Shown here one piece after another: positions 10,436 to 42,244 of a DNA stretch of 64,000 bases (position 1 is the stretch's first letter; each line of letters opens with the position of its first letter). The notes under the pieces were generated by a model. The model was not told where the DNA came from. It worked only from the letters and a program-made list of their open reading frames with translations, and did not search any database. The stretch covers positions 269,049 through 333,048 of the forward strand of contig MFNK01000003.1 in the NCBI GenBank assembly GCA_001782045.1. Reading direction: 5' to 3'. The DNA is from Candidatus Levybacteria bacterium RIFCSPHIGHO2_01_FULL_36_15b (GTDB lineage: Bacteria; Patescibacteriota; Microgenomatia; Levybacterales; UBA12049). The translations under genes and the position numbers were made by a program.

Positions 10436-10483
10436 TATTTGAGAAATTTCTTAAAAAGAAATATAATCAAACCTTAATTCCTT

Positions 10484-12141: not shown

Positions 12142-12164
12142 ATAGAGACTATTTTCTGAAAAAC

Positions 12165-13292: not shown

Positions 13293-13297
13293 AAAAT

Positions 13298-17239: not shown

Positions 17240-17264
17240 TTAGTGAGCAAAAAGGTATAATTTT

Positions 17265-19308: not shown

Positions 19309-19310
19309 AT

Positions 19311-24596: not shown

Positions 24597-25853
24597 TTAT
24601 ATTCCAAACTTTTTGAAGTAGTAGGAAAGAAGCGCTATTAATAATATCGATGAGGAAAAAATTGAAACATAAATGATTTGATAGAAATCAGCATGATATA
24701 AATAAATGAAAACTATCTGAAGAATAGCTACGGGTATAACTAGCAACCAAATTTTAGTCTGGTTAAAAGAAAGAAAAAGGTTTACACATACATTAACCAT
24801 GCTAAATATAGTTAAGAATAATCCGAAAAGACCAAGAAATTTAGCTATTTCTAAATATTCTCTGCCTCCTAAAAATAGAGTTATCACAAACTGAGGGTAT
24901 AGATAATAAAACGTAGTGATAAGCGCTGCCGGAAGAAAAACTAAAACAAGAGCAAGATAAAATAGTCTTTTATAACTAGCTCCAATAGCATGTCTTTTAA
25001 TTAGAAGTGGAAACAAAACTGAGGGAATTGGCATGGTAAAGTAGAATATCACTTTTCCAATTAGAGATAATCCAGCATAAAAACCTGCTTGCTTTGCTTC
25101 AAATAGATGTCTTACAAGAATTACATCAATGGAGGTAAACGATGTGAGAAACAACATAGTAAAAAAAGCCGGAACCGAATAAGATAAAATCTCTTTTTTA
25201 GGGAGGTTTATGCTTTGATTAAACTTTAAATTTATAAATGATCGCAATGGAAAAAATGAGATAAGAAATGAACCTAATGTCATAAAAAATATTGCAATCA
25301 AACCGGAATAAGCCTTAAATCCTAAATAAACAAGTAGTACACCTGCGGCAAGTTTTATGATACTAGAAACAACAGCAATTACAGATATTAATGGGAATTT
25401 TAATAAACTTTGAAGAAAAGATTGATTAAGACTACTTAAATAGACGATTGAAACAATTGCTCCTACCACAACCAAATACCAGATGCTATCCAATTTTAGA
25501 AATAATGAGATTGGAAAGGTTAATGCGCAGAAAATCGCAAACAAAGTGATTGAAAAAATCAGTAAAAATTTTGCACACAGATTATAAAACGAGGAAAATT
25601 TATCCAACTTTCCTTGTGCATAATAATCCGTTGCAAATTTTACAATAATTGTACTAATTGAGCCTGCCGGAATAAGTGCTAAGGAAATAATTGCAAGAAG
25701 ACTTGCAAATATTCCATAATCGGTCACTGACAAATTGCGTGCCAGAAAAAGGTTAAGAAGAAATGCCAAGAAATTCCCCGCCATCCCCCCTAAAAATAAA
25801 TAAAATGAACCTTTTATCAGGTCATGGCGTAGTAGCTTTGTTAATAAATTCAT
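24597..25853 (-). CDS. Wzx-like oligosaccharide/polysaccharide flippase (MOP superfamily)
   Basis: 418 aa, ~12 predicted TM. N-terminal LIKGSFYLFLGGMAGNFLAFLLNLFLARNLSVTDYGIFA is typical of Polysacc_synt family proteins. Confidence 0.7.
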   Translation of the reverse strand: MNLLTKLLRHDLIKGSFYLFLGGMAGNFLAFLLNLFLARNLSVTDYGIFASLLAIISLALIPAGSISTIIVKFATDYYAQGKLDKFSSFYNLCAKFLLIFSITLFAIFCALTFPISLFLKLDSIWYLVVVGAIVSIVYLSSLNQSFLQSLLKFPLISVIAVVSSIIKLAAGVLLVYLGFKAYSGLIAIFFMTLGSFLISFFPLRSFINLKFNQSINLPKKEILSYSVPAFFTMLFLTSFTSIDVILVRHLFEAKQAGFYAGLSLIGKVIFYFTMPIPSVLFPLLIKRHAIGASYKRLFYLALVLVFLPAALITTFYYLYPQFVITLFLGGREYLEIAKFLGLFGLFLTIFSMVNVCVNLFLSFNQTKIWLLVIPVAILQIVFIYLYHADFYQIIYVSIFSSSILLIALLSYYFKKFGI

Positions 25854-26902
25854 ACACTTTTATAAACATCGATTGTTTCCTGTGCGGTTTTTTTCCAAGA
25901 AAAACGCTTTACATTTTCTAAGCCTTTCTCCTGAAACTCTTTTTGTAGTTTTTCGTCTTCAAAGACCTCTTTAATTCCTTCAGCCATTTTTTCGTAATTA
26001 AATGGGTCAATATAATAAACACTGTTTCCGCCAACTTCTAAGAGAGATGCTTCTTTTGTTGTAATAACCGGAGAACCACATGCCTGTGCTTCAAGAACTG
26101 GGAGTCCGAAACCTTCATAGAATGATGGCAGTATAGAAACTGTAGCGGTATTATAAAGAGACACTAAATCTTCCTGGGTTACAAAACCAAGAACAGTAAT
26201 AAGATTTGAATTTTCAGTTTTAAATTCGTCGATTTGTTGATGTACACGAACGAGATCCCTATTCCATAAGTTAGTTTTATCGAACTCAGAGACAAAAGCC
26301 TTACCAACCAAAACAAGCGGTATGTTCGCGGCTTTAATCGCATTAAGAAGTCTTGGAAGATTTTTATTTGGGGTCACATCACCAACATACAATACAAACT
26401 TCTCAGGTAGATTATACTTTTTCCTAACTTCCATTTTCCATTTTCCACCTTCAAGAACTCTAAACTCTTCCCCCGCGGCTAAGTAGACAACGTTTACCTT
26501 ATTTTCTTTCGCCCCAACATACTTAAGAATGTCGCCCTTGGAATTTTTGGAATCTGTTATTATTGCATTCGCTTGCTTTAGAGAAAATCTTTGCATCTGC
26601 CATTTAAGCTGACCTTTAAAACCTCTTGGAAAAAGATTGGGAAAAACTATTGGAGTTAAATCGTGGACTGTAACAACTGTTTTATATCTTTTGTATAAAG
26701 GAAGCGCAAGAAAAAACGGTTCGAAATAAGGAAAATGTACCAAATCTACTTTGTTAGGTAATTTATCTCCCGTATTAAAAAATATGTATTCATTTTCCGG
26801 AAAGTAATTAACTAAGGAGCTCTTAAGATGTTCTAAATAAAACCCAACTCCTCTAACTTTATGACCTGTTTGTAGCGGTGAAACATCGATTGCAACTTTC
26901 AT
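25850..26902 (-). CDS. Glycosyltransferase family 4
   Basis: ...SFYEGFGLPVLEAQACGSPVITTKEASLLEVGG. Confidence 0.8.
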   Translation of the reverse strand: MKVAIDVSPLQTGHKVRGVGFYLEHLKSSLVNYFPENEYIFFNTGDKLPNKVDLVHFPYFEPFFLALPLYKRYKTVVTVHDLTPIVFPNLFPRGFKGQLKWQMQRFSLKQANAIITDSKNSKGDILKYVGAKENKVNVVYLAAGEEFRVLEGGKWKMEVRKKYNLPEKFVLYVGDVTPNKNLPRLLNAIKAANIPLVLVGKAFVSEFDKTNLWNRDLVRVHQQIDEFKTENSNLITVLGFVTQEDLVSLYNTATVSILPSFYEGFGLPVLEAQACGSPVITTKEASLLEVGGNSVYYIDPFNYEKMAEGIKEVFEDEKLQKEFQEKGLENVKRFSWKKTAQETIDVYKSV

Positions 26903-28041
26903 AAGTATCTTTTGAGTTTTGGAAATTTAAAAACTAAAAACTCATAAACTCCGTATGTTGCAATTATATATAAAACAGGGATCAGAATTACAAAATATCT
27001 AGCGCTTGCATCGCCTAAGCTCATTAAAATTAAATAACTTAAAGACCAAACAAGCAATATCTCTATTTCTAGCTTTGTATTTCTTGCTATAAAACTTCTC
27101 ATCAGAGTTAAAAAAGATATCACAGTTATGAGAGGCCAAGTGATGAACCATTGAGGATCGTATGCAATTGCATTTCCGTTGTACCATTTATTAATAAGCA
27201 AAAGTGGCCAAATAGTAAATGGCTGTCTTAAATGCCCAGTGTTGTAAAGAAAAATCCATTTTTGAATTCCCAAAAATTTGTTTAATGGGTAACCATCTAA
27301 TAGTACTTTCAAATAAGTTGAATATAAGAATAATACTGCCACTGGTAGGCTGATTATTAGTTGTTTAAGCCTCATATAATCTTTATGTATCAAAAGTGGA
27401 ATTACTAAGGCAACTATAATTGCCGCTCCACTTCCGAAAAATTTTGTTGATATAAAAGCGCCTAAAAATACAGCAGATAAAAAAATATTAAAAAAACTAT
27501 TTCTTGTAATTCTTGCTCTATTAAAAAAATAAAAAATTAACAGCAAGAAAGATAGCTGCATCAAATCTAATAAGGGCGTATAAATCAATTGATTCTTAAA
27601 AATTGGTTCAAAACTAAACAAGAGAGGTGGCAAAGAGGCAATTAAGGAATTTCCGAAAATTTGTTTCCCAACAAGATACATGAGAAACAATGACAGAAGG
27701 GAAAATAAAAATATAACAACGTTTGGATTATTAAAAATAAGAATTGAAGCTCCAATTAAATATTTGCCAAGTGGCGGTGCTTCTGGGTTCGTAATTATGG
27801 GACTTTCTCCTTTAATCAATGCTCCTGCGGAATATGAATATAAATAAAAATCCTTTATAAAATTTCCATGTTTATTCTTATAAACAGAGTCGTAGACCAT
27901 TTTTTTCAGATCAGAGAAGTTATGCCAATAATTGAACGTATATAAATCTTTGTGCGAGTAAACTACAGAAAAAACGTTATAAAAAATCAGCGCAATAAGA
28001 ATAATTTTGATATATTTTAAATTTTTGAGTGCCATTTCCAT
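26899..28041 (-). CDS. Polytopic membrane protein, GT39/PMT_2-like lipid-carrier-dependent glycosyltransferase (divergent)
   Basis: 380 aa with ~10 TM and a first-loop region YSAGALIKGESPIITNPEAPPLGKYLIGASI resembling ArnT/PMT_2 proteins. Confidence 0.55.
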   Translation of the reverse strand: MEMALKNLKYIKIILIALIFYNVFSVVYSHKDLYTFNYWHNFSDLKKMVYDSVYKNKHGNFIKDFYLYSYSAGALIKGESPIITNPEAPPLGKYLIGASILIFNNPNVVIFLFSLLSLFLMYLVGKQIFGNSLIASLPPLLFSFEPIFKNQLIYTPLLDLMQLSFLLLIFYFFNRARITRNSFFNIFLSAVFLGAFISTKFFGSGAAIIVALVIPLLIHKDYMRLKQLIISLPVAVLFLYSTYLKVLLDGYPLNKFLGIQKWIFLYNTGHLRQPFTIWPLLLINKWYNGNAIAYDPQWFITWPLITVISFLTLMRSFIARNTKLEIEILLVWSLSYLILMSLGDASARYFVILIPVLYIIATYGVYEFLVFKFPKLKRYL

Positions 28042-28996: not shown

Positions 28997-30550
28997 TTAT
29001 CTGAAAATTAAATTCTGGAAATAATTTGGATCTACTTCTAATTTATCCTTGGAAAGATCTATTTTCTCAACAACTATACCACTGTCAAATCTTTTAAAAG
29101 TTGCGGGCTCCGCTTGCGTTCTAATTACGTTTTCCTTCCAGAATAAATGAGCATTATCATCATTCTGACGGGGCGGATACATTATTAAATACGTGTTCTG
29201 TGATTTTCTATTCTCGAGCTGGTTTAACCTATTTTCTTTTGAGAAATACCAAATTAGGTAATCCATATTATAGGTTAAAATACCCGGTGAATATACAAAG
29301 TATCCCGCGTCTTTTCGTTTAGAATCATTAATAACCCACTCGGCAACCTCTTTCTGATTTATGTAAGTTCCATTGCTTACTGATTTATATTCTTGATTTT
29401 GAAGATATACAGTACTGAGATAATTCAAAGGCGCTATGACTGCAATTAAAAGAAAGGCTAAAACTAGGAAACGAAGAAAAGGAATTTTCCAAATGATTTT
29501 TATTGATAAGCTTACGATAAAAGAAAAAATTACAGCAATTGGAAGAAGATAGTGGGACCACAAAGGGAAAGGGTAAATTATGTAAAAACCAAAGATCAAG
29601 ACAGGAGAGAACAAAAGAAAAATAAACTCTTTATCCAACTTTTGAATTCTTGAGCTTCTAATTTTTTTGGTTAAAAAGAATAATGCAGAGAAAATAATAG
29701 AAACCAATAATATTTCTGAAATTATATTTTTTTCATATAAAGGCGAGAAAAAACTATCCCACAAAGCATTTGCCCTATCACCCACCCTAAATATAATATC
29801 TGAATACTGTTCGTAACCGGGAAGTGGTTTATGTGTATTTGTGAATAATTTAAATACAGAAGAAGTCATTAAAAACTGATGCCTTAAGTCGAAAAGAATA
29901 AAAGTAGATACTGCCAATACCGCGCTTAGAAAGCCTAAAAATAAATATTTGATTCTTGGAATTCTTCCTGCAAAAAGAAAAGCTAAAATAGTTACCGGCA
30001 GAAGAAGGACAGAAAATGCAGACTCAAACTGAAAACCCAGTCCTATTGAAAAGAGTGCAAGTATAAAATATTTTTCCTCCCCTCTGATAAATTTAACTAT
30101 TGAAAGAAGATATAAAAGAAACACAATGGGAAGTACTTGAGCGTTAGTAGTAATTTGAGTAGATGCAATAAGCTCACCTGATATGGTAAGAAAAAAAGCA
30201 ACAAGCAGTCCTAGCCAGTTGTTATACAGCTTCCATCCTACAATAAAACCGGCTGCAACAATTCCTAGATTTACCAAAAGGAAAAGCGGAATGAGGGTAA
30301 GGAAAGGATTTCCTCCAGACAAGATAAAGAATGGAACTATAAAATATATCCATAACACCCCATGAAATAAGCCTCCGAAGCCCGTACGTCCTCCTATAAG
30401 AGTTAAATCGTGGTCCACTGCAATTGACTTAGCAATAAGCAAATCCCTTGCCTGGTCTACCAAATAAAAAAAATCTCCGTTCAATAACATATTTGACCTT
30501 AGCAAAAAAGCAATCAAAAGAATTGCTATGAATAAAAGGAGGGTCTTCAT
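28997..30550 (-). CDS. Family B polytopic membrane glycosyltransferase (ArnT/GT83-like with DQARD loop motif)
   Basis: 517 aa. The first extracytoplasmic loop ...FYLVDQARDLLIAKSIAVDHDLTLIGGRTGFGGLFHGVLWIYF aligns with the ArnT DEARYAEIAREML...KPPL region. Confidence 0.7.
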   Translation of the reverse strand: MKTLLLFIAILLIAFLLRSNMLLNGDFFYLVDQARDLLIAKSIAVDHDLTLIGGRTGFGGLFHGVLWIYFIVPFFILSGGNPFLTLIPLFLLVNLGIVAAGFIVGWKLYNNWLGLLVAFFLTISGELIASTQITTNAQVLPIVFLLYLLSIVKFIRGEEKYFILALFSIGLGFQFESAFSVLLLPVTILAFLFAGRIPRIKYLFLGFLSAVLAVSTFILFDLRHQFLMTSSVFKLFTNTHKPLPGYEQYSDIIFRVGDRANALWDSFFSPLYEKNIISEILLVSIIFSALFFLTKKIRSSRIQKLDKEFIFLLFSPVLIFGFYIIYPFPLWSHYLLPIAVIFSFIVSLSIKIIWKIPFLRFLVLAFLLIAVIAPLNYLSTVYLQNQEYKSVSNGTYINQKEVAEWVINDSKRKDAGYFVYSPGILTYNMDYLIWYFSKENRLNQLENRKSQNTYLIMYPPRQNDDNAHLFWKENVIRTQAEPATFKRFDSGIVVEKIDLSKDKLEVDPNYFQNLIFR

Positions 30551-32859
30551 TTGTTAAGATTTATTTTTTCAATTAAGTATTTTTGCAATGAAAAAGTGGA
30601 TTTCAGTTGGTATTTATTGAGCCAGCCTACCAAATCGTCATAAACCGTGGGTTGATTAACGTTAATCCATATTTTTTTGTCTTTTTCAAAATCTTGGCTT
30701 TTAACGCTACCCAAATCAACAAGCAAAAAAACTTCTTTATTTACCGCCGGAAGTCTTTCTTTGGAACAACCATCTTCTTCTATGCAGCTAAAACCTATTT
30801 TTTTGCCGTTGACGTCTGATATTCCCCTAAAACTCATTATTAAACTTAAGCCCATGCTTTGACCATAAAATTTATAAGTATAATCGTATAAAGAAAATTT
30901 TGTGTTAGGAAATTTTTTTGTTAAATTGTTAATAACTTTTTCATATCCAAATCTCGGACTCGGATAATTAATTACAATAAGTATATAAGTCACACTAAAC
31001 AGAATTATTAGAGCCATAGATAAAACAACAAAGGCTTTGGACAGTCTTATGTTTAAATTCCAAATTTTATATAAAACAAAAGAACTAAAAATTAATATAA
31101 AAGGCAATAAGTAAATTAAATATCCCTCACTTCTTTCAGCTCTATAAAATCTGTTTATAAAAACAAATAATAAGAATATAAAACCCAATACTAATAATTG
31201 TGCAGATACTTTCTTTTTGAATGCATAAAAAAGAAAAAAAACGGAACTTGTAAAAAATAGAACCAGTCCTAATACTGGAAGTCGTCCTACAACAAACGAC
31301 CAATATGCAGGAAAGTCCTGAAATAAATAAAGCTTCCAGCTATTTGGAACATAAATTCTCCCTACTCCGATTAAAAAGTAATCTAAAATATTTAATGTGT
31401 TTGCAAAGCCCTGTTGGCTATCCCAATAAATTATTGGCAAAGACGCAATGAAAAATCCTGTCAAGGAAAAGAATAATGCTTTAACCTTGTCTTTAACTGA
31501 TAAACTAGTTATGAAGAAAAGAGCAAGAAAGAATACAAGAAGATTAATTGATTGATAATGCATACTTAAGGCAACTCCAACTGATAACCCCATTAAAAAT
31601 GAGTAGATGTGATTTTTTTTCTTCCAAAGCAGTAAAAAACAAATAATTGAAAGTGCAGAAAAAGTAGCTACAAAAGTATGCTGACCCAGGCTTAAAGATC
31701 TAACTACAAGTTGAGGGGAAAAAGCTGCCAAAATACCCATTATTATTGAAAACTTTTCATCAATCAAAATTTTGCCCAAATACATTAACAAAACTACTGT
31801 AATAATGCTTGTTATTTCCATCATTACCCATGGAGCTCCTATAAAAAAGGGCAAAGCCAGATAAGAAAGCATTATAAACCAGTAAAATATAGGACCAAAA
31901 ACAAATGGACCTGCGCTGCTAAAAGACCCTGTCAGGGGCAGCTCAAGGCGTTTTATTGACTCTAGAGCGATGATTGCATCTCTACTATCGTCTCCGCCAA
32001 GCCCCCATCGCAAAGGAAAGTTCCAGAGCCTTAAAATTGATGCAATTATGATAATTACTGCCGCCAAGAATTTGTAAGTACCAACGTATTTTATGTATGA
32101 GACTGGAAATCGGAGAGCTGAAACAAAACTGAATAAAAATCCTTGCCACCCATCCATAAACCCCTTGTGTCTAAAATATGTCGTAAAAAACCAGTGAGCA
32201 GGTCTGACTAGCAAATACATAAAACCGTAGAAAGTTTTCTGTAAAAAGTTCTTTGTTTTTTGTTCTTCTTTTATTTGGTGGGAATAAAAATTGTTATAGA
32301 AATTCCATTTTTTTAAGTAATGCGAAAAATTTTTATAAGGATAATGAAGTAGCGCTGATTTTAAATACCCTACTTTTCCATCTATTACTGCCTGTTCGTG
32401 AACATCTTTTTGTGGCAGTTTTCCTTTACCATTTCTATATAGACGAATTGTATAATCAGGGTATTGTCCGCCTTTCATTAAAAATCTTCCCAAAAACCAG
32501 TTTTTTCTGGGCATCCAGTAGCCATTGATTTGCTGATGGTTGATTGTTGATGGTTGATGGTTAAGAATGCTCTTTATCTCCTGCGCCAATTCGGGAGACA
32601 CTTGTTCATCCGCATCCATTTGTAACACCCAATCCGACGTTGCAATATCAATTGCCATTTGTTTATTTATATGGAAGTTTTCTTTATTAGTGGTTATTTT
32701 TACTTTAGCCCCGTATTTTTTTGCTATTTCCACCGTTTTATCCGTTGAGGCTCCATCAACTATTATTATTTCATCGGCAATATCTTTAAAACTTTCTATG
32801 CACGAAGCAAGATTTTTTTCTTCGTTAAAAGTTGCTAAAACTACAGATAGAGTTTTCAT
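30547..32859 (-). CDS. Fusion protein: N-terminal GT2 (WaaE/KdtX-like) domain + C-terminal family B GT-C-like membrane domain (770 aa)
   Basis: N-terminus LSVVLATFNEEKNLASCIESFKDIADEIIIVDGASTDKTVEIAKKYGAKV...QMDADEQVS. After ~aa 250, 11+ TM helices with ...GGDDSRDAIIALESIKRLELPLTGSFSSAGPFVFGPIFYW (the family B loop motif). Confidence 0.75.
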   Translation of the reverse strand: MKTLSVVLATFNEEKNLASCIESFKDIADEIIIVDGASTDKTVEIAKKYGAKVKITTNKENFHINKQMAIDIATSDWVLQMDADEQVSPELAQEIKSILNHQPSTINHQQINGYWMPRKNWFLGRFLMKGGQYPDYTIRLYRNGKGKLPQKDVHEQAVIDGKVGYLKSALLHYPYKNFSHYLKKWNFYNNFYSHQIKEEQKTKNFLQKTFYGFMYLLVRPAHWFFTTYFRHKGFMDGWQGFLFSFVSALRFPVSYIKYVGTYKFLAAVIIIIASILRLWNFPLRWGLGGDDSRDAIIALESIKRLELPLTGSFSSAGPFVFGPIFYWFIMLSYLALPFFIGAPWVMMEITSIITVVLLMYLGKILIDEKFSIIMGILAAFSPQLVVRSLSLGQHTFVATFSALSIICFLLLWKKKNHIYSFLMGLSVGVALSMHYQSINLLVFFLALFFITSLSVKDKVKALFFSLTGFFIASLPIIYWDSQQGFANTLNILDYFLIGVGRIYVPNSWKLYLFQDFPAYWSFVVGRLPVLGLVLFFTSSVFFLFYAFKKKVSAQLLVLGFIFLLFVFINRFYRAERSEGYLIYLLPFILIFSSFVLYKIWNLNIRLSKAFVVLSMALIILFSVTYILIVINYPSPRFGYEKVINNLTKKFPNTKFSLYDYTYKFYGQSMGLSLIMSFRGISDVNGKKIGFSCIEEDGCSKERLPAVNKEVFLLVDLGSVKSQDFEKDKKIWINVNQPTVYDDLVGWLNKYQLKSTFSLQKYLIEKINLNK
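32534..32561. repeat. Heptanucleotide tandem repeat (TGATGGT)x4, one imperfect unit, inside the coding sequence of 30547-32859
   Basis: tgatggt tgattgt tgatggt tgatggt (28 bp). It encodes ...STINHQQINGYW... on the minus strand. Confidence 0.7.
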
Positions 32860-34508
32860 TATTTATCCTTGCTGTAGGTAGTATAACATGTGAACCTTGG
32901 ATTGACCTTTATGATACTTTTAATTGAATCTATTTCTTTTTTACCCAAGCCTTGGGTGTCTTTGAAGGTACTTAAATCCTGGTTTAAAATACGCTTTTGT
33001 ACAATAAGATCAGTATATTTCTTCTCTTCAATGAGGCTTGATGTATTATCTTCCATGTATATAAATACCGGTTTTATGAAATCTGAAATGCCAGCATTCG
33101 GCTCTAAAATAATAAATCTCAATGGCACGTGATTTTTATCATACGGAAGATTATTAGAGTCTACTACCTGTTCTTGACCTGCCCAATACGGAACATAACC
33201 ATATGTGTTTTTGCCATATGTACTATATAAATATGACCAGAGCACGTTAATATATAACGGATTTGTCAAAGCGCATATACTAAATGGCTTACCTTCAGCA
33301 GAGATGTATGTGTAATCAATTAAATTCTTCTCATCTTTTAATGTAAAATTTTGAATACTTAAAAGCTTTATTGCTTTAAAATTATCTGAAACAAACAAGT
33401 ACATATTAGAAACAAAAACAATAAGAATCCCCAGTATTAGGATGATATTTTTGGCAGATTTGATATTTACAAGTACATAGGCGGCAAGTATTGATAGTGG
33501 AGCAAAAAAAGTTGTATTTATTAATTGAGTCTCATGAACCCCGCTGAATGTCAAAAATAGTGGAGCTGTTGCGAACAGCCAAATGAAAAAAAAGATTTTA
33601 GTTTTAGACACCTTAATTTTAATCCAGGAAAATATTGAAAAAGATATAAACAATGCAAATGCAATTGTTGTGTCAAAGGCAAGAAGTGAATAGCGGATAG
33701 CCTGTGATATTTTAACTATATACCTATTTATTCCTCCAATTAAATCAAAGGTTTGCTTGTGGGATAGCACATAATTAAGCAACGATTTTGTCATCATAAA
33801 ATTCCATTTTAATTCTGCAATTAAATACGGCGAAAAGAGGGCAAACAGTAAGACAAAATTTAACAATAATATCCTTAAGCCTATCTTTGGTTTAAAAATC
33901 AAAAAATAAACGATGTAGAAAATTAGCTGATAAAATAGGTAAAAATTTGTCTGGACACTTAATGCAAAACCGATTACCGAGATTGTTAAGCCAATGTTTT
34001 TCTTTTGGAAAATAAATATTGCAAGCCCGATAAAAAACAATAACGATGCTATTCCCATAGGGGATGCATTAGATATAAATTTTGAGAAATTTATCTGCTC
34101 ATAAGAAACTGCCCAGAAAAAAGCAGCAAGCAATCCCACTCTCTTATCATTAAATAAAATGATGCTCGTAAAATATATTAAAAATATTGCGCTGATATTG
34201 ATAAGTGACAAAAATATTGCAGGAAAATTTGGATTAAATCCGCCTATTAAATAAACTATTGCTAGAACGTAGTAAGATAAAACTCCATGAAACACACCCG
34301 GTATATCAGATTCCTGTCCTAATAACTTAAAATTCTTAAGGTTAACAATGTCTAACATTCTTTGTGCATCTCTCGCTTGATCGTAACCAAAAGTAAAATT
34401 ATCCCAGATATTAAATAGCCTTAAGCACGCTCCAAAGGAAAATATTAACAAGAGGATAAATAGCGGATTTTGAAACAATTTCTTTATAAATTTTAAATTA
34501 ATTTTCAT
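32859..34508 (-). CDS. Family B polytopic membrane glycosyltransferase (ArnT-like, DQARD motif)
   Basis: ...FGYDQARDAQRMLDIVNLKNFKLLGQESDIPGVFHGVLSYY.... 549 aa, ~13 TM. Confidence 0.7.
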   Translation of the reverse strand: MKINLKFIKKLFQNPLFILLLIFSFGACLRLFNIWDNFTFGYDQARDAQRMLDIVNLKNFKLLGQESDIPGVFHGVLSYYVLAIVYLIGGFNPNFPAIFLSLINISAIFLIYFTSIILFNDKRVGLLAAFFWAVSYEQINFSKFISNASPMGIASLLFFIGLAIFIFQKKNIGLTISVIGFALSVQTNFYLFYQLIFYIVYFLIFKPKIGLRILLLNFVLLFALFSPYLIAELKWNFMMTKSLLNYVLSHKQTFDLIGGINRYIVKISQAIRYSLLAFDTTIAFALFISFSIFSWIKIKVSKTKIFFFIWLFATAPLFLTFSGVHETQLINTTFFAPLSILAAYVLVNIKSAKNIILILGILIVFVSNMYLFVSDNFKAIKLLSIQNFTLKDEKNLIDYTYISAEGKPFSICALTNPLYINVLWSYLYSTYGKNTYGYVPYWAGQEQVVDSNNLPYDKNHVPLRFIILEPNAGISDFIKPVFIYMEDNTSSLIEEKKYTDLIVQKRILNQDLSTFKDTQGLGKKEIDSIKSIIKVNPRFTCYTTYSKDK

Positions 34509-34510
34509 TT

Positions 34511-36151
34511 CTATTTTATTTTCCTAACTTTTGAATATATAAAAAGTGAAAAGATAGAAATCAAAGATAATAGAGATATTATATTCGATATCATTCTTAA
34601 TTTTGTTTCCTCAAATCTTGCAACGGTTTCATAGCTACCCTTATTTAGAAAGAAAGTCATAATTCCTTGATAATCTTTATTTTGGAAATAAACTTCAACA
34701 GGTAAATTATTTGCTGTTATTTTCCAGCCGGGAAAGTACAGCGTATTTTCCCTAAAAAGTGTTTTTGCATCTACTTTAATTTGATATTTGTGATATGTAG
34801 AACTTCTTTCAATCTCCTCAATTTCGGCATACCCATCTATAATTTCTAAATGGGCACTGGGCCGATGCTCCATAAATCTTACCGACCAAATTGGAGCACT
34901 TTCTCCTGTGTCCGTTGTGCTTTCATAAATCCCGGTATAAAAACTTTCGCTTTTTTCCTGATAAGCTTTTGGCTTAGCATAGTTAATGCTAATTAATAAA
35001 ATAATAATGATGGCGGAGATAGAAACCAGTTTGACGTTAATTTTTTTATTTAGTGAGTCTAGAAGTAATGCTCCTAATACAGATGTAGTAAAAAGCACCA
35101 TAGCTAAAAATCTCCAAGGGAATTGAAAATTCTGAAGAATAATTATTTTCGACCAAATAAAATTAGAAACCGGAAGCATAATAAAAATTGAAAATATACT
35201 AAAAGCAATTAAAATAAGTGCGAGATAAAATTTGTACTTATCTTTTTTACCAAAAATTAGTACTAAAGGAGAAAGAAGTAATGAAATCCAGGATAAAGGC
35301 CCAAATTGTAAAGTAAATTGTCCTGTAATTCCATAACTCCACGGTCCATAAATTAATTGTTCAAAATTAACAAACCTATTTATATATGTACCTGCGGTTA
35401 CAATGTCTCTTAATGTATATTTACCCTCTAAAAGTGCCGGTATCCAAAAAAATGCTGATAGCGCAAGACCAAGAATTATTAAAAAGACAAGATTAATAAT
35501 TAATGTTTTTTTGTATTTAGATAGGTAGATTAATAATAAGGAGTAAAGCAATATAAAAGGCATCAGTATAAGGCTTATGGCGTTATGAGACAGGATTAAA
35601 AAGGATAAAGAAAAGCTTCCAAGGATAAAATATTTTAAATCCTGATTTTTATACAACCTGTATATAAAAAAGAGAGTTAATGGAATAAATGGAAATGCAA
35701 GATTTTCTCCTACATCACCTCTTACATAAAGATCAACAAACCTATATGGTGCATACGTAAATAAAACTGCTCCAAACAAAGCGGCGTATTTAGAAGTAAA
35801 TTCTCTAAGCCATAAATACATAAAAGGCAAAGACAAAAACATTCCTAGGCCCATAACGATTTTTGTAGAATTTACAAATGAAAATCCTAGAAAATGGAAA
35901 AGAGAGGCAATATAAGAAGGCAAGGGATATAAAAACATTAAAATTGGATGCCCATATCCCCAATTTAAATTAGAAGCCCATCGTGGAATTAAGCTTCCTT
36001 GTTCAAGGTTTAAATAGAAATTGGCAATTCGTGCAACATGATCCTGTCCATCGTGGGTTATGGGAAAACCCGAAGGAAGTAGGGCAAGGATTGGAAACAA
36101 AGAAAGGAATATTAAAAGTATTTTGAAATGGTGTTTTACTAAGAAATTCAT
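34511..36151 (-). CDS. Family C polytopic membrane protein (HDG...RW...GYGHP motif), putative GT-C-like glycosyltransferase
   Basis: ...GFPITHDGQDHVARIANFYLNLEQGSLIPRWASNLNWGYGHPILMFLYPLPSY...YAPYRFVDLYVRGDVGE.... Paralog of 53762-55429 and 55417-57054. Confidence 0.7.
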   Translation of the reverse strand: MNFLVKHHFKILLIFLSLFPILALLPSGFPITHDGQDHVARIANFYLNLEQGSLIPRWASNLNWGYGHPILMFLYPLPSYIASLFHFLGFSFVNSTKIVMGLGMFLSLPFMYLWLREFTSKYAALFGAVLFTYAPYRFVDLYVRGDVGENLAFPFIPLTLFFIYRLYKNQDLKYFILGSFSLSFLILSHNAISLILMPFILLYSLLLIYLSKYKKTLIINLVFLIILGLALSAFFWIPALLEGKYTLRDIVTAGTYINRFVNFEQLIYGPWSYGITGQFTLQFGPLSWISLLLSPLVLIFGKKDKYKFYLALILIAFSIFSIFIMLPVSNFIWSKIIILQNFQFPWRFLAMVLFTTSVLGALLLDSLNKKINVKLVSISAIIIILLISINYAKPKAYQEKSESFYTGIYESTTDTGESAPIWSVRFMEHRPSAHLEIIDGYAEIEEIERSSTYHKYQIKVDAKTLFRENTLYFPGWKITANNLPVEVYFQNKDYQGIMTFFLNKGSYETVARFEETKLRMISNIISLLSLISIFSLFIYSKVRKIK

Positions 36152-37677
36152 TGTTCAATTCTTGTTTGTATAACTACTCCACTAGGCAATGTGTAAGACT
36201 TGATTATTTTCCCATTTTTTTCTCTATCCCTAAGCCACCATTTTGGCCTATCCTCGTAACCCGGATCTGGCTCTATTATAAAAAAAGAATATGTAGCATC
36301 CTTAGTTTCTTCAGTTGGAAGATATTTATATTTTTTTTCTCCATACCACATAAATAAATATCTATACGTGTAATCAAAAACTGGGGGAGTATATGCTACA
36401 AATTTAAAATCCTTGCCGTTTGCTTCTTTATAGACGTAATCAACCACTGCAAGCTGATTCCTATACACAGATGCATTACCTATAAATTGTGGGCTCATGA
36501 ATGACTTTAGTTGTCGTATTGGATCGAAATTAATAATAAATAATAACGACACGGCTAAAATGATTAAATATTGATATTTTTCTTGCTTTGGAATCATAAA
36601 AAGCGCTAGCGTAAATAATAAAATATAAATAACCGGAAGTCCTACGAGATAATGTGGCCACAAAGCTCTGCCAAACGAAATTGTTCCAATAAAGAAAACA
36701 ATAAGAATAGTAAAGAGTGTGATCATAAATTTTTTAAAAATTTCACTTGATCTTTTATAAAATAAAATTGCAGATATAACTGTGAAAACAATGAATACCC
36801 AAGCAAGTATTTGGTTATTAAAGGTAAGTGAGGAAGCATACATATCAACAAAGGAATTAACCCTATTTTCTACAAGTTGAGTAAAGGTAATTGGGTCTTC
36901 TATCGTATTCTTGCTTGTAATAAATGTTATTAAAGATTTGCTCATCTGAAAACCGTGTTTTATTTCAAAAAAAATTCTTGGAGAAGCAATTAAAATCATT
37001 CCTAATGCAAATGAAAATATTTGTTTGATTTTGATTTTTTTATAAAGAAGGAAAAAGAGTGACAGTATGGTACCAATTGTAAATAGAATACCCCAAAGGA
37101 TTTCTATATCTATATTTAATGCAAGCAAGATCCCAAGAAAAAAGAAATATCTTAAATCTTTTTTTTCAAATTTATAGATTTTATATAAGCAATAAAGCGT
37201 TAACATAACAAATAAAGGCGCTATGTTAGGATTCCAAATCTGAACAGATAATGAAACTAAAACAGGAGAAACGCTAACGAATGCGGCAAGCCCCAAGCCT
37301 AAAAAAATTCCATCTATTTTTTTTCCTAAAATGTAAGAGACAATAATGGATGCAACGCCTACTATAGCCATTATTAAAGCAATTCCAGCGGGATCGCCTC
37401 TAAAAATAATGAAAAATGGAACGAGCATGTAGTACCACCAAGGACCATAAAATACTCCTGGAATTCCGGTCGTTGCGCCTATAAACATTAGATCATGGTT
37501 TACTACAATATTCTGCAATGCGAGCATGTCGCGCCCTACGTCATATGTAAACGCAAAAGAATTAGTTAGTACTCCTTGAAGCCTTAAAAAAGAACCAACA
37601 ATAACTAAAAGAAATAAAATTACCAGTTCTTTTTTAAAAATAATTTTTTTAAAGTCCATAAGCTTAGGTACCTGCAA
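36148..37677 (-). CDS. Family B polytopic membrane glycosyltransferase (ArnT-like; DVGRD variant)
   Basis: ...FAFTYDVGRDMLALQNIVVNHDLMFIGATTGIPGVFYGPWWYY.... 509 aa. Confidence 0.7.
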   Translation of the reverse strand: MQVPKLMDFKKIIFKKELVILFLLVIVGSFLRLQGVLTNSFAFTYDVGRDMLALQNIVVNHDLMFIGATTGIPGVFYGPWWYYMLVPFFIIFRGDPAGIALIMAIVGVASIIVSYILGKKIDGIFLGLGLAAFVSVSPVLVSLSVQIWNPNIAPLFVMLTLYCLYKIYKFEKKDLRYFFFLGILLALNIDIEILWGILFTIGTILSLFFLLYKKIKIKQIFSFALGMILIASPRIFFEIKHGFQMSKSLITFITSKNTIEDPITFTQLVENRVNSFVDMYASSLTFNNQILAWVFIVFTVISAILFYKRSSEIFKKFMITLFTILIVFFIGTISFGRALWPHYLVGLPVIYILLFTLALFMIPKQEKYQYLIILAVSLLFIINFDPIRQLKSFMSPQFIGNASVYRNQLAVVDYVYKEANGKDFKFVAYTPPVFDYTYRYLFMWYGEKKYKYLPTEETKDATYSFFIIEPDPGYEDRPKWWLRDREKNGKIIKSYTLPSGVVIQTRIEQ

Positions 37678-39331
37678 CTCTAATTACCGGCGTGCCGTCG
37701 AGGTTATAAATAGTTTTTATTTCAGTGCCACTTGGAATCTCATCAGTATTCCCTATTAAAAGAGTATTAGGCATTTTAGAATCAGAAGACCAATCAATTG
37801 GCCTAAACTCATACTTACCAAAAGAATGGTGAGCTGCGTATCCACCGGCGCTATTTTGACCTATCTTTTGATACTGTTCTGGTGGGTACTTTAAATAAAA
37901 TAAAAAGAACATATATGATTTATCCATCGGCTGATCGTCCGATACAATTATTTTATCGTATTTAGTATCTAAAGCCATAGCAATGTCAACTGCCTCCTTA
38001 TAGCCATATTGCCAGTAAAAGGAGGAATAGTAATTCTGTTGAGCAAAATACTGATTAAGATAAAACATGAAATTAAACATAGCAAGCAACGCAAAGGCAC
38101 CGGTAAATAAAAGATAGGGAATTTTTCTTAAGTCTTTGCCTTTAGACCAAATTAGTAAATTTAGTGCACCAAGTGCTGCAATTATTTGCCACGTGGGTAA
38201 GAAATTAAGCGTTCTTACAGCATGAGGAACCTCGGTTGTAACTGATGCAGGCAATGGAGCGAGTAGAACCCAAGAAAAAAGAATTAGCTTTGTTTTAACA
38301 TCGATTTTTCCAAATAATAAGAAGTAAATACCAATTAAAATGAGCGGCAATTCAAATAAATACAGCATTCCCATATTTGGTGCATGATGTCTTGCAATAT
38401 CGCCTTTTAAAAATAGCCAGTTTGGGTCAAAATGTGAGATATATCCTGACACCATAGTTTTTGCATAAACTATTCTTCTGTTATCCAGGATTAAGCCTAA
38501 TTTATCATTGCGAGCCTTATCTTCCTCAAGTCTTTGAATATTATTTTTTAAAAGCTCCGTTTGATATGAAAAAATACTTGTTCCTGTAACCCGCAAAAGA
38601 GCGGCGCTGTTGGTAAAAATATAAAAAACCATAGGAAACACTAATAGTAATCCCAATAAAAACGATGAAGATAGATATTTTTTGCTAATAGAAAATAGTT
38701 TTTTCCTATAAATTAAGATAAGTGCTAAAACCAAAAGTGGAGTGAAGACCTTTTCACTTTGATATGCATAAATAGAAAAAGCTGCAAAAGATGCTGCCAG
38801 CATTAAAAATTTAGGTTTTTGTAGACCTTTAATAAAAAATAGTACTGTTAGAATATTTAATACGGCTCCGACATTTGCTTCAAATCCTACCCTTGAAAAT
38901 TGCAAAGACCATGGAGAAATAGCCATTAGCATTGCCGATATCAATGCTGTAATTTCTAATTTCCAATTTCCAATTTCCAATGAGGTCCTCAATAGTTCCT
39001 TAACTAAGAAATAGACGGCAATTACGGAAATAATTCCAAAAATTGCCGATGGAAACCTAACTGCGAAAGTATTTAGACCAAAAATTAAGACTGATGGAAT
39101 CGTAAGATATGTATATAATGCGGGTTTATAATCGTCAAACGATCTTAAAACAACTGGTAAAAACTTTCCATATTCGTCTTTTCCTGTTTGAATTATCGAA
39201 TAAGCATTGTATGCCAACGCTGCCTCGTCCCAATCAGGCGAGGGAGGAATATCTCCAAGTTGCCAAATTCTTAAAACCCCAGCAAGGATTAATATTGCTG
39301 ACAAAATAATTAATACTAGTTTTCTATTCAT
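37664..39331 (-). CDS. Glycosyltransferase family 39-like (PMT/ArnT superfamily; PMT_2-type) membrane protein
   Basis: ...LRIWQLGDIPPSPDWDEAALAYNAYSIIQTGKDEYGKFLPVVLRSFDDYKPALYTYLTIPSV...RFPSAIFG.... The DE motif in loop 1 is the hallmark of PMT/ArnT. Confidence 0.8.
   Translation of the reverse strand: MNRKLVLIILSAILILAGVLRIWQLGDIPPSPDWDEAALAYNAYSIIQTGKDEYGKFLPVVLRSFDDYKPALYTYLTIPSVLIFGLNTFAVRFPSAIFGIISVIAVYFLVKELLRTSLEIGNWKLEITALISAMLMAISPWSLQFSRVGFEANVGAVLNILTVLFFIKGLQKPKFLMLAASFAAFSIYAYQSEKVFTPLLVLALILIYRKKLFSISKKYLSSSFLLGLLLVFPMVFYIFTNSAALLRVTGTSIFSYQTELLKNNIQRLEEDKARNDKLGLILDNRRIVYAKTMVSGYISHFDPNWLFLKGDIARHHAPNMGMLYLFELPLILIGIYFLLFGKIDVKTKLILFSWVLLAPLPASVTTEVPHAVRTLNFLPTWQIIAALGALNLLIWSKGKDLRKIPYLLFTGAFALLAMFNFMFYLNQYFAQQNYYSSFYWQYGYKEAVDIAMALDTKYDKIIVSDDQPMDKSYMFFLFYLKYPPEQYQKIGQNSAGGYAAHHSFGKYEFRPIDWSSDSKMPNTLLIGNTDEIPSGTEIKTIYNLDGTPVIRVAGT
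38951..38978. repeat. Heptanucleotide tandem repeat (AATTTCC)x4, first unit imperfect, inside the coding sequence of 37664-39331
   Basis: aatttct aatttcc aatttcc aatttcc (28 bp). It encodes ...SLEIGNWKLEITAL... on the minus strand. Confidence 0.7.
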
Positions 39332-40950
39332 CTTGTATATGCTACCAAAGCCGGTACTCCGTTAAGTAAATAGAAAGTTTTTAAAATAGTAATATCTTCC
39401 GGTAATTTGTATGGAGTATTAATATACAGAACTTTACTAGAAGAACCGCGAGAATAATCATAGTTTTCCGGAAACAAATACTTTCCTACCTTTTCCACTT
39501 TTACAAATCCAAAAGCTTCTCTTTTAATTTTTGAGCTATTTCTAAATTCTTCTGGGCTTGATTTATTATAAAAAAGGTAATAAATATAAGGCCTGCCAAG
39601 GGCAGTGGTAACTTGGATATAGTCATAGTTTTTTTCTACAGACTTAACATAATCAACTGACTGTTTATAACCGAATTGCCATTCTCCAGAGTATGCCTTA
39701 GGATAATGCGCATAATAGTAGTGTGAAAAGTAAGCTACATTAACAAACAACAATGCAAACAATACCCCATAAACTGCTTTTTTATATCTATTAATCATTT
39801 CAAACACGCTTACGAATCCAAAAGCAGCTATTATTTGGAAAGCAGGAAGAGTCGTTTCTATTCTTAAAGCATGAGGGGTTTCTCTTGCAGTTGCTGCAGG
39901 AAGTATGCCTATTAAAATCCATAATGGTATGATCCACCAATTTCCCTCTCTTTTTCTAAATAACAAAAATATTCCACCCACAAAGAAGATAATGTCCCAA
40001 ATATACATTTGCCCTACTTCTTGTGTAGAAAATTTTGGATTTCCGTCTCCTTTTATAAATAGAAAACTAGGCGACAAGTTATCAAGGTAATGCTTTGCAA
40101 AATCTAATGAATATAAAACTCTTCTATTATTGAGTAACTTAGACCATAAGGCGTTATTATCATTTTCAATTTGCTGATTAGCTTTTTTAACAATTTCAGG
40201 ATTACTAAAGATATTTACCTCTTTAAAACGCAATGATGCCTGAGGAGTAAGAAGAAATGGGATTAAGGGCAACAATATTAAAAGTCCAATGATAAAAGAT
40301 AAAAAAACTTGCTTTTTGTCTTGCCAAAGCACTTTTCTAAAAACAATTGCAAGTAATATAACCAAAAGCGGTGCGACTATCCTTGAAGTATTAAACGTAT
40401 GCATTGATAGCGCAAAAGAAACTGCTGAAATGATTAAATACCATTTTTTATCCTGCACTCCTGATAAAAATGCCCATATTCCCAAAACTATGAAAAAAGA
40501 GGCAACATTTGCCTCAAATGCGCCTCTTGAAAGCAAAATATGCCACGGAGAAACAGCAAGAAACAATGACGAAACCAATGCTATTAATTCTGCGTTTCTA
40601 GATTTAGAAAAAATTCTTTTAACTAAAAAATACGTTAGAAGCACAGTCAAAACACCAAAAAAAGCAGAAGGAAATCTGGTAGCAAATTCATTTAGGCCAA
40701 ATATTTTAATTGGAATTACATCTAAATAGGCATACATTACGGGCTTAAAATCACCGAATGACTCAAAATAATCAACAGGTAAAAATCTACCAAACTCATC
40801 CTTACCGTCAATCCCTAAGGAATAAGCATTGTATCCCCAAGCCGCTTCATCCCACGTAAGTGAAGGAGGGTTAGAGCTTAGTTGATAAAACCTTAAAAGC
40901 ATAGCTATGACAATGATTAAGCCTAAAATAATAAATTTATATTTTTTCAT
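39328..40950 (-). CDS. Glycosyltransferase family 39-like (PMT_2-type) membrane protein, tandem paralog
   Basis: ...LRFYQLSSNPPSLTWDEAAWGYNAYSLGIDGKDEFGRFLPVDYFESFGDFKPVMYAYL...RFPSAFFG.... Confidence 0.8.
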   Translation of the reverse strand: MKKYKFIILGLIIVIAMLLRFYQLSSNPPSLTWDEAAWGYNAYSLGIDGKDEFGRFLPVDYFESFGDFKPVMYAYLDVIPIKIFGLNEFATRFPSAFFGVLTVLLTYFLVKRIFSKSRNAELIALVSSLFLAVSPWHILLSRGAFEANVASFFIVLGIWAFLSGVQDKKWYLIISAVSFALSMHTFNTSRIVAPLLVILLAIVFRKVLWQDKKQVFLSFIIGLLILLPLIPFLLTPQASLRFKEVNIFSNPEIVKKANQQIENDNNALWSKLLNNRRVLYSLDFAKHYLDNLSPSFLFIKGDGNPKFSTQEVGQMYIWDIIFFVGGIFLLFRKREGNWWIIPLWILIGILPAATARETPHALRIETTLPAFQIIAAFGFVSVFEMINRYKKAVYGVLFALLFVNVAYFSHYYYAHYPKAYSGEWQFGYKQSVDYVKSVEKNYDYIQVTTALGRPYIYYLFYNKSSPEEFRNSSKIKREAFGFVKVEKVGKYLFPENYDYSRGSSSKVLYINTPYKLPEDITILKTFYLLNGVPALVAYTR

Positions 40951-41531
40951 TTTTCTGCTTTAAACCACATATTAAATCCTAATTCAAAATACCCGCTTTT
41001 TATATTCTTAAATCCGGTGTTTTGAACCATATCTATTATTGTTTTTCTACTATGATGGCTTTTGTGATCATGAATTTCTTCCTCAGATATTAAATTAAAT
41101 TTTGACATCTGATGTAAAAGTTTGTCAGACCATGGAGGCGGAGTGGTAATTATAAAAATACCGTTCTTTTTTAAGATTCTGTATATTTCATTTAAAACAA
41201 GTGGAATTTTCTCTTGATCTATATGTTCAAAAACAGCCAGCATTGTTATTGCATCAAAAAAATTTTCTTTGAAAGGAATTGGCTTTTGCGAAATATTGGA
41301 TTTTATTAATTTTATCCCGTCGATATTTATATTTGAAAGGGAGGGGTCGATCCCATATTTGTCTTTGAATTCTGTTTTTGTTAAGAAGTAAGGATAAAAA
41401 CCACATCCGACATCCAAAATTCTTCCCGTTCGATATCTGTTAGGTATTAAATAGTTAGCTTTTTGAGCTCTTTTTTTAGAGAGAAAGTGTTCAAGAATCC
41501 CTGAACCTCGGGTAACTTGGCCATTGGTCAT
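40947..41531 (-). CDS. Class I SAM-dependent methyltransferase
   Basis: ILDVGCGFYPYFL, LKKNGIFIITTP. Confidence 0.75.
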   Translation of the reverse strand: MTNGQVTRGSGILEHFLSKKRAQKANYLIPNRYRTGRILDVGCGFYPYFLTKTEFKDKYGIDPSLSNINIDGIKLIKSNISQKPIPFKENFFDAITMLAVFEHIDQEKIPLVLNEIYRILKKNGIFIITTPPPWSDKLLHQMSKFNLISEEEIHDHKSHHSRKTIIDMVQNTGFKNIKSGYFELGFNMWFKAEK

Positions 41532-41533
41532 AT

Positions 41534-42244
41534 TTAATCTGTGAATCTATATTTAAAAAGGTACCAGATTGCTTTGCTTCCGTCCTTTACTGCGCTTATC
41601 TTCTTTCCTTCTTCATATCCCCGCGGTTTAACCTCTATTGGAAGTTCCATAATTTTATATCCTCTTTTTAATAGCTTTGCAGTAATTTCCGGTTCAAACT
41701 CAAACCCCTTAGCATTCATTCTTACACCGTTAAGAGCAACTTTTGGAAAAAGCTTGTAGCAGGTTTCCATATCTGTTATCCATTGACCATACAAGATGCT
41801 TGTAACTAGGCTTAGGAATCTGTTTCCAAAATAATGTAGCAAAAACCTAAAAGTTTTCTCTTCTCCTGCAAGACGAGGGAGTCTTTTTATTCTCGTTCCA
41901 TAAACTACTTTTGATTTTTTTTCTAATATTGGTTTTATTAACTGCCTGATAAACTTTGGATCGTATTCCAAATCGGCATCTTGAATAATTATGTATTCCC
42001 CGGTTGAGTTTTTAATACCTGCAAGAACTGCAGCTCCTTTTCCCTGGTTTTTATCTTGCAATATGGTTTTAAAAGATTTTGATTGAAGTTTATTTAATTT
42101 TTCCCGCGTTTCATCTGTTGAGCCATCATCAACTACTATAATTTCTTTTTCAACTCCAGGAATTTTTTCGTTGATAACTTTTTTTAGAATTTCTTCTACA
42201 GTTTTTCCTTCGTTATAAACAGGAATAATTATAGATAATTTCAT
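41534..42244 (-). CDS. GT2 polyprenol-phosphate-sugar synthase (DPM1/GtrB-like)
   Basis: MKLSIIIPVYNEGKTVEEILKKV...IIVVDDGSTDETREKL, ...DADLEYDP..., ...ITDMETCYKLFPK. 236 aa, no TM. Confidence 0.8.
   Translation of the reverse strand: MKLSIIIPVYNEGKTVEEILKKVINEKIPGVEKEIIVVDDGSTDETREKLNKLQSKSFKTILQDKNQGKGAAVLAGIKNSTGEYIIIQDADLEYDPKFIRQLIKPILEKKSKVVYGTRIKRLPRLAGEEKTFRFLLHYFGNRFLSLVTSILYGQWITDMETCYKLFPKVALNGVRMNAKGFEFEPEITAKLLKRGYKIMELPIEVKPRGYEEGKKISAVKDGSKAIWYLFKYRFTD

Follow-up and report, generated by a model that had tools for sequence, protein, structure and literature searches.

We analysed a 64,000-nucleotide stretch of the genome of Candidatus Levybacteria bacterium RIFCSPHIGHO2_01_FULL_36_15b (contig MFNK01000003.1; hereafter the window). 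Four genes on its minus strand, B1 (28997–30550), B2 (30547–32859), B3 (32859–34508) and B4 (36148–37677), belong to a large and largely unannotated Patescibacteria family of membrane glycosyltransferases of the GT-C fold, termed family B, in which the signature of the first extracytoplasmic loop is remodelled and the catalytic aspartate is retained. The four genes probably encode active, paralogous GT-C membrane glycosyltransferases that transfer lipid-linked sugars to a cell-surface acceptor, a reading to which we assign a probability of about 70%. An earlier note on this DNA, made from the sequence alone, had described them as ArnT-like enzymes whose catalytic D-E motif is replaced by DQARD, DVGRD or DDSRD. 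Its observations of the open reading frames (ORFs), the motifs and their alignment register were borne out, whereas the reading as a replaced motif was not, since the first aspartate is kept.

Fold and first-loop signature of the family B proteins

Translation confirmed the four minus-strand ORFs and their motifs (DQARD, DDSRD, DQARD and DVGRD in B1 to B4). B1, a GT-C membrane glycosyltransferase of 517 amino acids, carries DQARD at residues 32–36 (nucleotides 30443–30457) and GLFHGV at residues 59–64. B2 (770 amino acids) is a fusion of a GT2 and a GT-C protein, with a cytoplasmic GT2 domain at residues ~5–139 (nucleotides ~32443–32847; PF00535 at 8e-24), a GT-C part at residues ~262–770, DDSRD at residues 290–294 (nucleotides 31978–31992) and a second motif GPFVFGP, in which FVFGP stands in place of FHGP. 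The order of cytoplasmic GT2, single hydrophobic helix and then motif makes the topology of B2 internally consistent, and fusions of this type were present in 51 of the 120 listed B2-clade relatives (P0261–P0379). B3 (549 amino acids) consists of a GT-C domain (residues 1 to ~375) and a soluble, conserved C-terminal alpha/beta domain (residues ~385–549, nucleotides 32862–33356), with DQARD at residues 43–47 (nucleotides 34368–34382) and GVFHGV at residues 71–76. B4 (509 amino acids) has a TTG start codon, an in-frame Met at residue 7 being an alternative start, and contains DVGRD at residues 46–50 (nucleotides 37528–37542) and GVFYGP as its second motif. The four paralogs share 20–29% pairwise identity, and the D, R and D of the motif are invariant among them. 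In each protein D-x-x-R-D lies ~10 residues past the first hydrophobic helix, as checked by translation of the coordinates, and is followed ~25 residues later by G-x-F-[H/Y/F]-G-[PV].

B3 as a query retrieved 104 homologs, and D..RD is present in all except four of these; a hidden Markov model (HMM) built from 76 of the homologs served as the family profile. Among the window proteins this profile scored the four family B members at 647, 420 (B4), 314 (B1) and 217 bits (B2), and the next best protein at 81 bits, with no other GT-C gene product above this. Family B is therefore a discrete subfamily, in agreement with the proposal of a distinct group with four members in 8.7 kb.

An AlphaFold2 model of B3, based on an alignment of 76 sequences, had a pLDDT of 94.9 and a pTM of 0.92 and comprised a helical membrane domain, which ends near residue 375, and an alpha/beta domain at residues ~390–549. 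The best 28 Foldseek matches of this model in the PDB were all GT-C proteins (STT3, AglB, PglB, ArnT, ALG9, ALG3, Pmt, Emb and AftD). The top TM-score was obtained with ArnT (5f15, 0.55/0.55); the best E-values were those with STT3, AglB and PglB (9e-6 to 7e-5), with TM-scores of 0.40–0.50. As modelled, B3 has the GT-C fold and is a member of the GT-C superfamily. In B3, residues ~385–549 show higher conservation than the membrane part and follow an aromatic-rich consensus, D-Y-T-Y...F-S-I-C...P-L..N-T.W-S-Y-L-Y..Y-G..K-Y-G-Y.P.W.G. The C-terminal domain modelled in isolation gave a pLDDT of 95.4, and a Foldseek search with it against the PDB returned nothing significant (best E 0.017, TM-scores ~0.2–0.3). 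This domain may be an acceptor-binding module.

The register of the loop motif was the same by three alignment routes. Alignment of the family profile with ArnT of E. coli (NC_000913) using hhalign placed FGYDQARDA on WQPDETRYA (E 6.5e-5, probability 64%), and with the ArnT sequences of C. metallidurans (Cm) and E. coli together the register was unchanged (FGYDQARDA on PDE[TG]RYA, E 7.8e-5). Against the PMT/PMT_2 paralogs of the window the family HMM gave full-sequence E-values from 2e-25 (39328–40950) to 5e-11, with FgyDqaRDa on LTWDEAAWG, LDWDEASIG, FHIDEASLG and PDWDEAALA, and GvfHGp on GDFKPV and GDYKPP. In these profile alignments with PMT/PMT_2 and GT83 sequences, which the earlier note had proposed as a check, the glutamate of the D-E pair consistently fell on Q, Q, V or D, as that note had it. 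Its classification of the proteins as ArnT/PMT-like GT-C membrane glycosyltransferases likewise agreed with the Foldseek, hhalign and family HMM results. The closest relatives of family B are those of the ArnT/PMT_2 branch.

Family B residues are numbered here as in B3, and the published numbering of ArnT was validated, with D55, E56, R58, Y59, E84, K85, D158, K203 and R270 on the expected letters. D43 corresponds to D55 of Cm ArnT, Q44 to E56, R46 to R58 and D47 to Y59; H74 falls in the E84/K85 region, with the register uncertain by one, and N147 and N188 align with D158 and K203, respectively, with moderate confidence. Column frequencies were calculated from 381–388 non-identical members. 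Position 43 was D in 93% and E in 7% (acidic in 100%), position 44 Q in 84%, position 46 R in 90% and position 47 D in 93%, and G64 (100%), G75 (98%) and Y80 (96%) were also strongly conserved. Position 74 was H (63%) or N (20%), position 147 N (80%) or H (8%), position 232 E (70%) or D (15%) and position 234 K (61%) or R (27%); position 188 was N, E, Q, H or D and never K. Conservation of the acidic residue at 43, the Arg, the second Asp, G75 and Y80 across ~380 members argues for selection on an active site. Among 146 new top representatives with at most 50% mutual identity, the D/Q/R/D columns were kept in 140, 131, 135 and 142 of 144. H or N occupied position 74 in 302 of 341 RD-containing members, and H did so in 16 of 40 members without RD, counts that ignore phylogeny; co-variation of R46/D47 with H74 as a unit was weakly supported and was not used as evidence. 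No second conserved acidic pair, which by the earlier note would have spoken against its observation, was found in the loop (E66 in 41/76 members, D68 in 43/76), and with the motif columns as strongly conserved as above the similarity of the motif to the D-E pair is not a matter of chance. Two signatures define the family: the first extracytoplasmic helix opens with [D/E]-x-x-R-D, and G-x-[FY]-[HN]-G-[PV]-x-x-Y-Y stands where the chain enters the second transmembrane (TM) helix.

With position 43 acidic throughout, the catalytic aspartate is retained and the D-E motif has not been replaced. Substitution of the second acidic residue, also claimed by the earlier note, held for B1, B3 and B4 but not for most of the clade of B2, in which a conventional DD is kept in 83 of 120 relatives. 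All GT-C enzymes compared in a previous study share at least the first Asp, which is the sole motif residue common to all of them (PMC7801869). In yeast Pmt1, E78 merely engages R138 in a salt bridge and so orients D77 (PMC7801869), and in Pmt of S. coelicolor a D113A variant was inactive whereas E114A was fully functional in vivo (PMC8698208). Since the E114A enzyme is active, loss of the Glu alone is weak evidence for new chemistry and is unremarkable in itself; what distinguishes family B is the combination of changes at the Tyr, the Lys and the D158/K203 positions. These larger changes, from Tyr to Asp, from Lys to H/N-G-P, from D158 to Asn and to residues other than Lys at the position of K203, had been missed in the earlier note. 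The altered donor or acceptor chemistry that it suggested is a plausible possibility.

Comparison with ArnT (GT83; lipid A 4-amino-4-deoxy-L-arabinose transferase; 5EZM/5F15) brings out both relationship and divergence. Besides the fold, the two have in common a transmembrane domain followed by an extracytoplasmic C-terminal soluble domain, and a catalytic Asp that opens the first-loop helix with an Arg three residues on (D55...R58 in ArnT, D43...R46 in B3). ArnT is defined by the motifs 42-RYA-44 and 66-YFEKP-70 of periplasmic loop 1, in which Tyr43 and Lys69 are required; the essential Lys of YFEKP is K85 in Cm and K69 in Bc ArnT (PMC5377068). The counterpart of K85 in S. coelicolor Pmt, H159, is essential as well (PMC8698208). 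In family B, by contrast, E56 is replaced by Q, V or D, the essential Tyr of RYA (Y59) by Asp in 93% of members, and E84/K85 of YFEKP by F-[H/N]-G-P without Lys (H 63%, N 20%; register uncertain by one). The D158–K203 acceptor-site pair is replaced by Asn and a polar, never basic, residue (N/E/Q/H). In further contrast to ArnT, the structural search with the C-terminal domain gave no significant match in the PDB, ArnT included, and arnBCADEF or other genes for UDP-Ara4N synthesis were not encountered in the window. The NCBIfam model of ArnT, NF009784 (cutoff 567), gave no match at E≤1 with any of the four proteins. Because the Tyr, the Lys and D158/K203 are changed and NF009784 is not matched, the family B proteins are not orthologs of ArnT.

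Extent and distribution of the family

The only Pfam family with matches to family B was PMT_2 (44 of 76 members at E≤0.01), and PF02366, the PMT family proper, matched 3 of the 76. Against the PMT_2 gathering threshold of 26.1 bits, B2 scored 28.5, B4 25.5 and B1 17.9 bits, and B3 had no match to this or any other Pfam family; NCBIfam contained nothing matching the GT-C parts of the four proteins. Curated models thus mostly overlook the family, the PMT_2 match being marginal. A HMMER scan of 1.84 billion representatives of 50%-identity clusters detected 11,220 proteins at E≤1e-10, of which 4,002 reached E≤1e-30, and we take the size of the family as at least 4,002 such clusters at E≤1e-30. 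Members are currently labelled as 'hypothetical', as 'ArnT-like' (some, by JGI) or as 'GT39', and the NCBI title of some B2-clade members is 'glycosyltransferase family 39 protein'. A search of the literature on GT-C enzymes or glycosylation in the candidate phyla radiation (CPR)/Patescibacteria returned nothing relevant.

Clustering at ~30% identity resolved more than 30 subclades, with motif variants that were clade-specific and kept within clades. The B3 clade (n=90) has DQ[AG]RD, the B4 subclade (n=7) conserves D[VT]GRD together with FYGP, one clade carries EQGRD, and some subclades are without R-D (DQVDN, DQDLF). When the GT-C part of B2 served as the query, the 120 relatives listed had FVFG[PG] as the second motif, and all contained D..RD. 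As the B2 clade thus has D..RD without exception and yet mostly DD at the first two positions, D-x-x-R-D is the unifying signature of the family, and clades are told apart by which residue comes second. A short subclade of ~427 amino acids has DQVDN and [FY]IGP instead of DQxRD and FHGP. These short forms, for example L063:8649-9905, usually adjoin a full-length family B gene (loci L032, L049, L051, L052, L054, L058, L060 and L063), and may represent a partner subunit or a degenerate paralog.

Scanning a single genome for each GTDB species with peptide patterns typical of B3 orthologs gave 65 loci, a sample biased towards these rather than an exhaustive taxonomic survey. All informative locus titles were those of Patescibacteria, namely Roizman-, Levy-, Gottesman-, Woese- and Daviesbacteria, Microgenomates and one of Saccharimonadales. 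A further 25 loci were titled 'uncultured Gammaproteobacteria/Pseudomonadales' (L004, L006, L008, L010, L017, L018, L023 and others). Their mean guanine-plus-cytosine (GC) content was 0.38, compared with 0.36, and they had Patescibacteria-type clusters with the same gene content. Because the GC range and gene content equal those of the other loci, these titles are probably placeholders or wrong taxonomy. Among loci with informative titles, family B has so far been found in Patescibacteria.

The surrounding glycan gene cluster

The window has a GC content of 32.6%, and between ~21.2 kb and its end at 64 kb all ORFs of at least 230 amino acids are on the minus strand. Consecutive genes from 28997 to 42244 are overlapping or abutting, with spacings of −14 to +2 nucleotides, and are translationally coupled; on the basis of these gaps they form one operon. 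They are part of a ~43-kb glycan operon whose ~16 GT-C-type genes, from at least four families, lie at 26899–63975 of the window (minus strand). The GT-C families represented in this co-directional cluster are family B, PMT_2/PMT, PTPS_related (PF10131) and YfhO (PF09586). For a genome that is small and of low GC content, ~16 GT-C genes in a single cluster amount to an unusually high density. Clusters of the same type surround family B homologs in other genomes, in one of which an MptA_B_family gene adjoins the family B homolog.

The gene between B3 and B4 (34511–36151, minus strand), which lies in the same operon, encodes a PTPS_related-type GT-C protein (PF10131, 2.5e-11) without a match to the family B profile, and the earlier note had been right to leave it out of the family; further genes of this type begin at 53762 and 55417. 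Genes of the PMT_2/PMT type are located at 37664, 39328, 57051, 58687 and 62725. The first two (37664–39331 and 39328–40950, minus strand), which we term family A, have a conventional W-D-E-A motif and provided the reference within the window for the alignment register. YfhO-type GT-C genes are present at 43163, 46697 and 60335. The ORF at 26899–28041, GT-C-like by profile only, encodes a membrane protein of 380 amino acids whose transmembrane region is matched by the family B profile at 30 bits. It had no match in Pfam or NCBIfam, contains the sequence PEAPPLGKY, resembling the HPPLGK motif of PMT, and may be a short GT-C protein.

Three small GT2 genes are candidates for polyprenyl-phosphate sugar synthases. 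One of them, encoding 236 amino acids (41534–42244, minus strand), is a potential maker of the donor, and those at 53049–53765 and 23832–24584 are similar to it. All three gave full-length matches to AglJ, ArnC, PpgS and Dol-P-hexose transferase at scores under the curated cutoffs, for example 116 bits to AglJ (41534–42244) and 85 bits to ArnC (53049–53765). Two Wzx-like flippases of the MOP family are encoded at 24597–25853 (Polysacc_synt, minus strand) and 51608–53062, and the cluster also includes ~8 further GT2 and three GT4 genes, a GalE-like epimerase and methyltransferases.

Genes for sugar-nucleotide synthesis lie upstream, at 7316–20417. They encode RmlD (7316–8167) and Gmd (8276–9355), both above the NCBIfam cutoff, a sugar C-methyltransferase (10484–11710), a GDP-fucose-synthase-like reductase (17265–18194), a formyltransferase (18586–19308) with an ArnA match of merely 44 bits and a DegT-family aminotransferase (19311–20417) with its best matches to LegC/PseC and an ArnB score of 163 bits against a cutoff of 631; an ORF of 132 amino acids without matches is located at 18191–18589. 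No UDP-glucuronic acid decarboxylase was found in the window. This region is a deoxy- and amino-sugar gene set and not an arn pathway, and it suggests that an N-formylated amino-6-deoxyhexose is present in the glycan. Two long ORFs, at 14826–17048 (740 amino acids) and 2813–4993 (726 amino acids), matched no Pfam family at E≤0.001, and the latter was faintly matched by the family B profile. Both could encode additional membrane proteins of glycan assembly, such as a polymerase or a ligase.

Proposed function and alternative readings

From the fold, homology, alignment register, conservation and gene context we infer the donor type, membrane orientation, acceptor and individual residue roles as follows. 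The ArnC/AglJ-like GT2s of the operon would load sugars onto polyprenyl phosphate at the cytoplasmic face, the lipid-linked sugar would be flipped across the membrane, and each family B enzyme would pass the sugar at the outer face to a surface acceptor, which could be a protein or a glycan under construction. The motif's first Asp (B3 D43) would activate or position the acceptor, like D55 of ArnT and D77 of Pmt1, and the Arg, the second Asp and the His/Asn may do the work of E56, Y59 and K85 of ArnT, by which the catalytic Asp and the donor phosphate are held. The context of this proposal is provided by the three ArnC/AglJ/PpgS-like GT2s, the two MOP flippases, the GT4s and other GT2s and the sugar-nucleotide genes. 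The paralogs differ in the second residue of D-x-x-R-D (Q, V or D) and in the aromatic-rich motif that follows it (H, Y or F), features that are specific to their clades, and probably catalyse different steps, or add different sugars, in the synthesis of one surface glycan. Such an assembly line would be similar to the mycobacterial Emb/Aft/Mpt/PimE enzymes and the three-component systems of GT2, flippase and GT-C, for example that of PMC11127046, in that GT-C paralogs and polyprenyl-phosphate sugar synthases occur together and a surface glycan is built outside the membrane. The GT-C families, organisms and gene order are different, the present case being a Patescibacteria genome of low GC content with ~16 GT-C genes in a single operon-like cluster.

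Several observations weigh against this proposal. The hhalign probability of the match to ArnT was just 61–64%; a phmmer search of PDB sequences with B3 returned only a chance match to adenylate kinase, in keeping with weak similarity to solved GT-C enzymes. A profile search of the PDB reached only PIG-M (GPI mannosyltransferase 1, 23gf_B/23gx_B) at E 0.002, in a match that spans the transmembrane region (69–339) and leaves the motif outside. The donor-phosphate residues K85 and K203 of ArnT have no basic counterpart at the aligned positions, and D43, R46, D47, H74 and N147 would be close in space, a placement deduced by homology. The GT2 domain of B2 is nearer to SunS/TIGR04283-type GT2s than to polyprenyl-phosphate synthases or ArnC/DPM1-type enzymes. 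Finally, the flippases of the cluster are Wzx-like, and flippases of this type usually carry polyprenyl-diphosphate oligosaccharides rather than monophosphate sugars. As a side observation, the sequence profile reaches PIG-M, whereas the fold comparison favours ArnT and oligosaccharyltransferases (OST).

A different reading is a ligase- or OST-like function, in which family B would act on polyprenyl-diphosphate oligosaccharides, D43 and D47, one helical turn apart, would chelate a divalent cation to neutralise the diphosphate, and repeat units flipped by Wzx would be transferred en bloc or polymerised onto an acceptor that is a protein or part of the cell wall. We consider this improbable. STT3, AglB and PglB (GT66) share with family B an acidic residue in extracytoplasmic loop 1 and a soluble domain at the C terminus. 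The best Foldseek E-values, to these three proteins, agree with such a function, as do the two Wzx-like flippases, the lack of a Pfam-recognisable Wzy or WaaL among the scanned ORFs, and the loss of the monophosphate-binding lysines of ArnT together with the gain of an invariant Asp. The top TM-score, however, is with ArnT and not with an OST, the window proteins closest in sequence belong to PMT/PMT_2, and sequence profiles do not link the OSTs to family B. Neither a WWDYG-like motif nor an OST-like C-terminal domain was found in family B, no initiating phosphoglycosyl transferase was identified, and three ArnC/AglJ-like GT2s for monophosphate donors are present. A mechanistically distinct GT-C class, argued from the change of E56 to Q and D158 to N, the loss of both lysines and the new Asp one helical turn on, appears equally doubtful; such enzymes would bind a metal, use diphosphate-linked glycans, supply the missing polymerases or ligases of a Wzx pathway and read the acceptor with the C-terminal domain. 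Unlikely, but somewhat less so, is a role as PMT-like protein O-glycosyltransferases acting on Ser/Thr of secreted or S-layer proteins instead of on a polysaccharide. It accords with the family 39 titles in the B2 clade, with PMT_2 as the only matching Pfam family (B2 above its cutoff), with scores of up to 81 bits for the PMT/PMT_2 proteins of the window and with a His where the essential His of the PMT HPP motif sits. In contrast to PMT/PMT_2 (PF02366, PF13231; GT39), most family B clades have D-Q or D-V in place of D-E, an additional R-D is present that is invariant among the four paralogs, PF02366 is confined to 3 of 76 members and B1, B3 and B4 are below the PMT_2 gathering score; moreover, an operon with ~16 GT-C genes, GT4s, GT2s and flippases fits polymer assembly better.

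Two further readings have far less to commend them. If the family B proteins were inactive GT-C-like scaffolds or chaperones, or if the resemblance of DxxRD to D-E were coincidental, the lack of conservation at the Glu of the pair and at ArnT D158 and K203, and the loss of R-D in subclades such as DQVDN and DQDLF, would be accounted for. This is very unlikely given a first acidic residue present in 100% of members, a motif kept across thousands of 50%-identity clusters, three independent alignments in the same register and four intact, translationally coupled paralogs. True orthology to ArnT, with addition of aminoarabinose to lipid A, might be proposed from the best TM-score, the JGI labels and the formyltransferase, DegT aminotransferase and ArnC-like GT2 of the window. 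It is effectively refuted: the defining residues of RYA (Tyr) and YFEKP (Lys) are absent, NF009784 is not matched, the ArnA and ArnB scores are low (LegC/PseC being the better match for the aminotransferase), and Gmd and RmlD indicate 6-deoxyhexoses. Patescibacteria are, moreover, commonly regarded as lacking lipopolysaccharide.

The reading of family B as active transferases of lipid-linked sugars does not overturn the current understanding of GT-C enzymes and is of interest mainly to specialists; it would be of greater interest if the remodelled site did reflect a different donor or metal requirement. The mapping of [DE]-x-x-R-D and F-[HN]-G-P on ArnT allows members to be annotated correctly and not as ArnT, and provides a short list of residues for mutagenesis. 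The family also offers a test, carried out by nature, of what the GT-C active site can do without. Patescibacteria genomes are tiny, and yet the present one gives ~43 kb and ~16 GT-C genes to one surface-glycan cluster.

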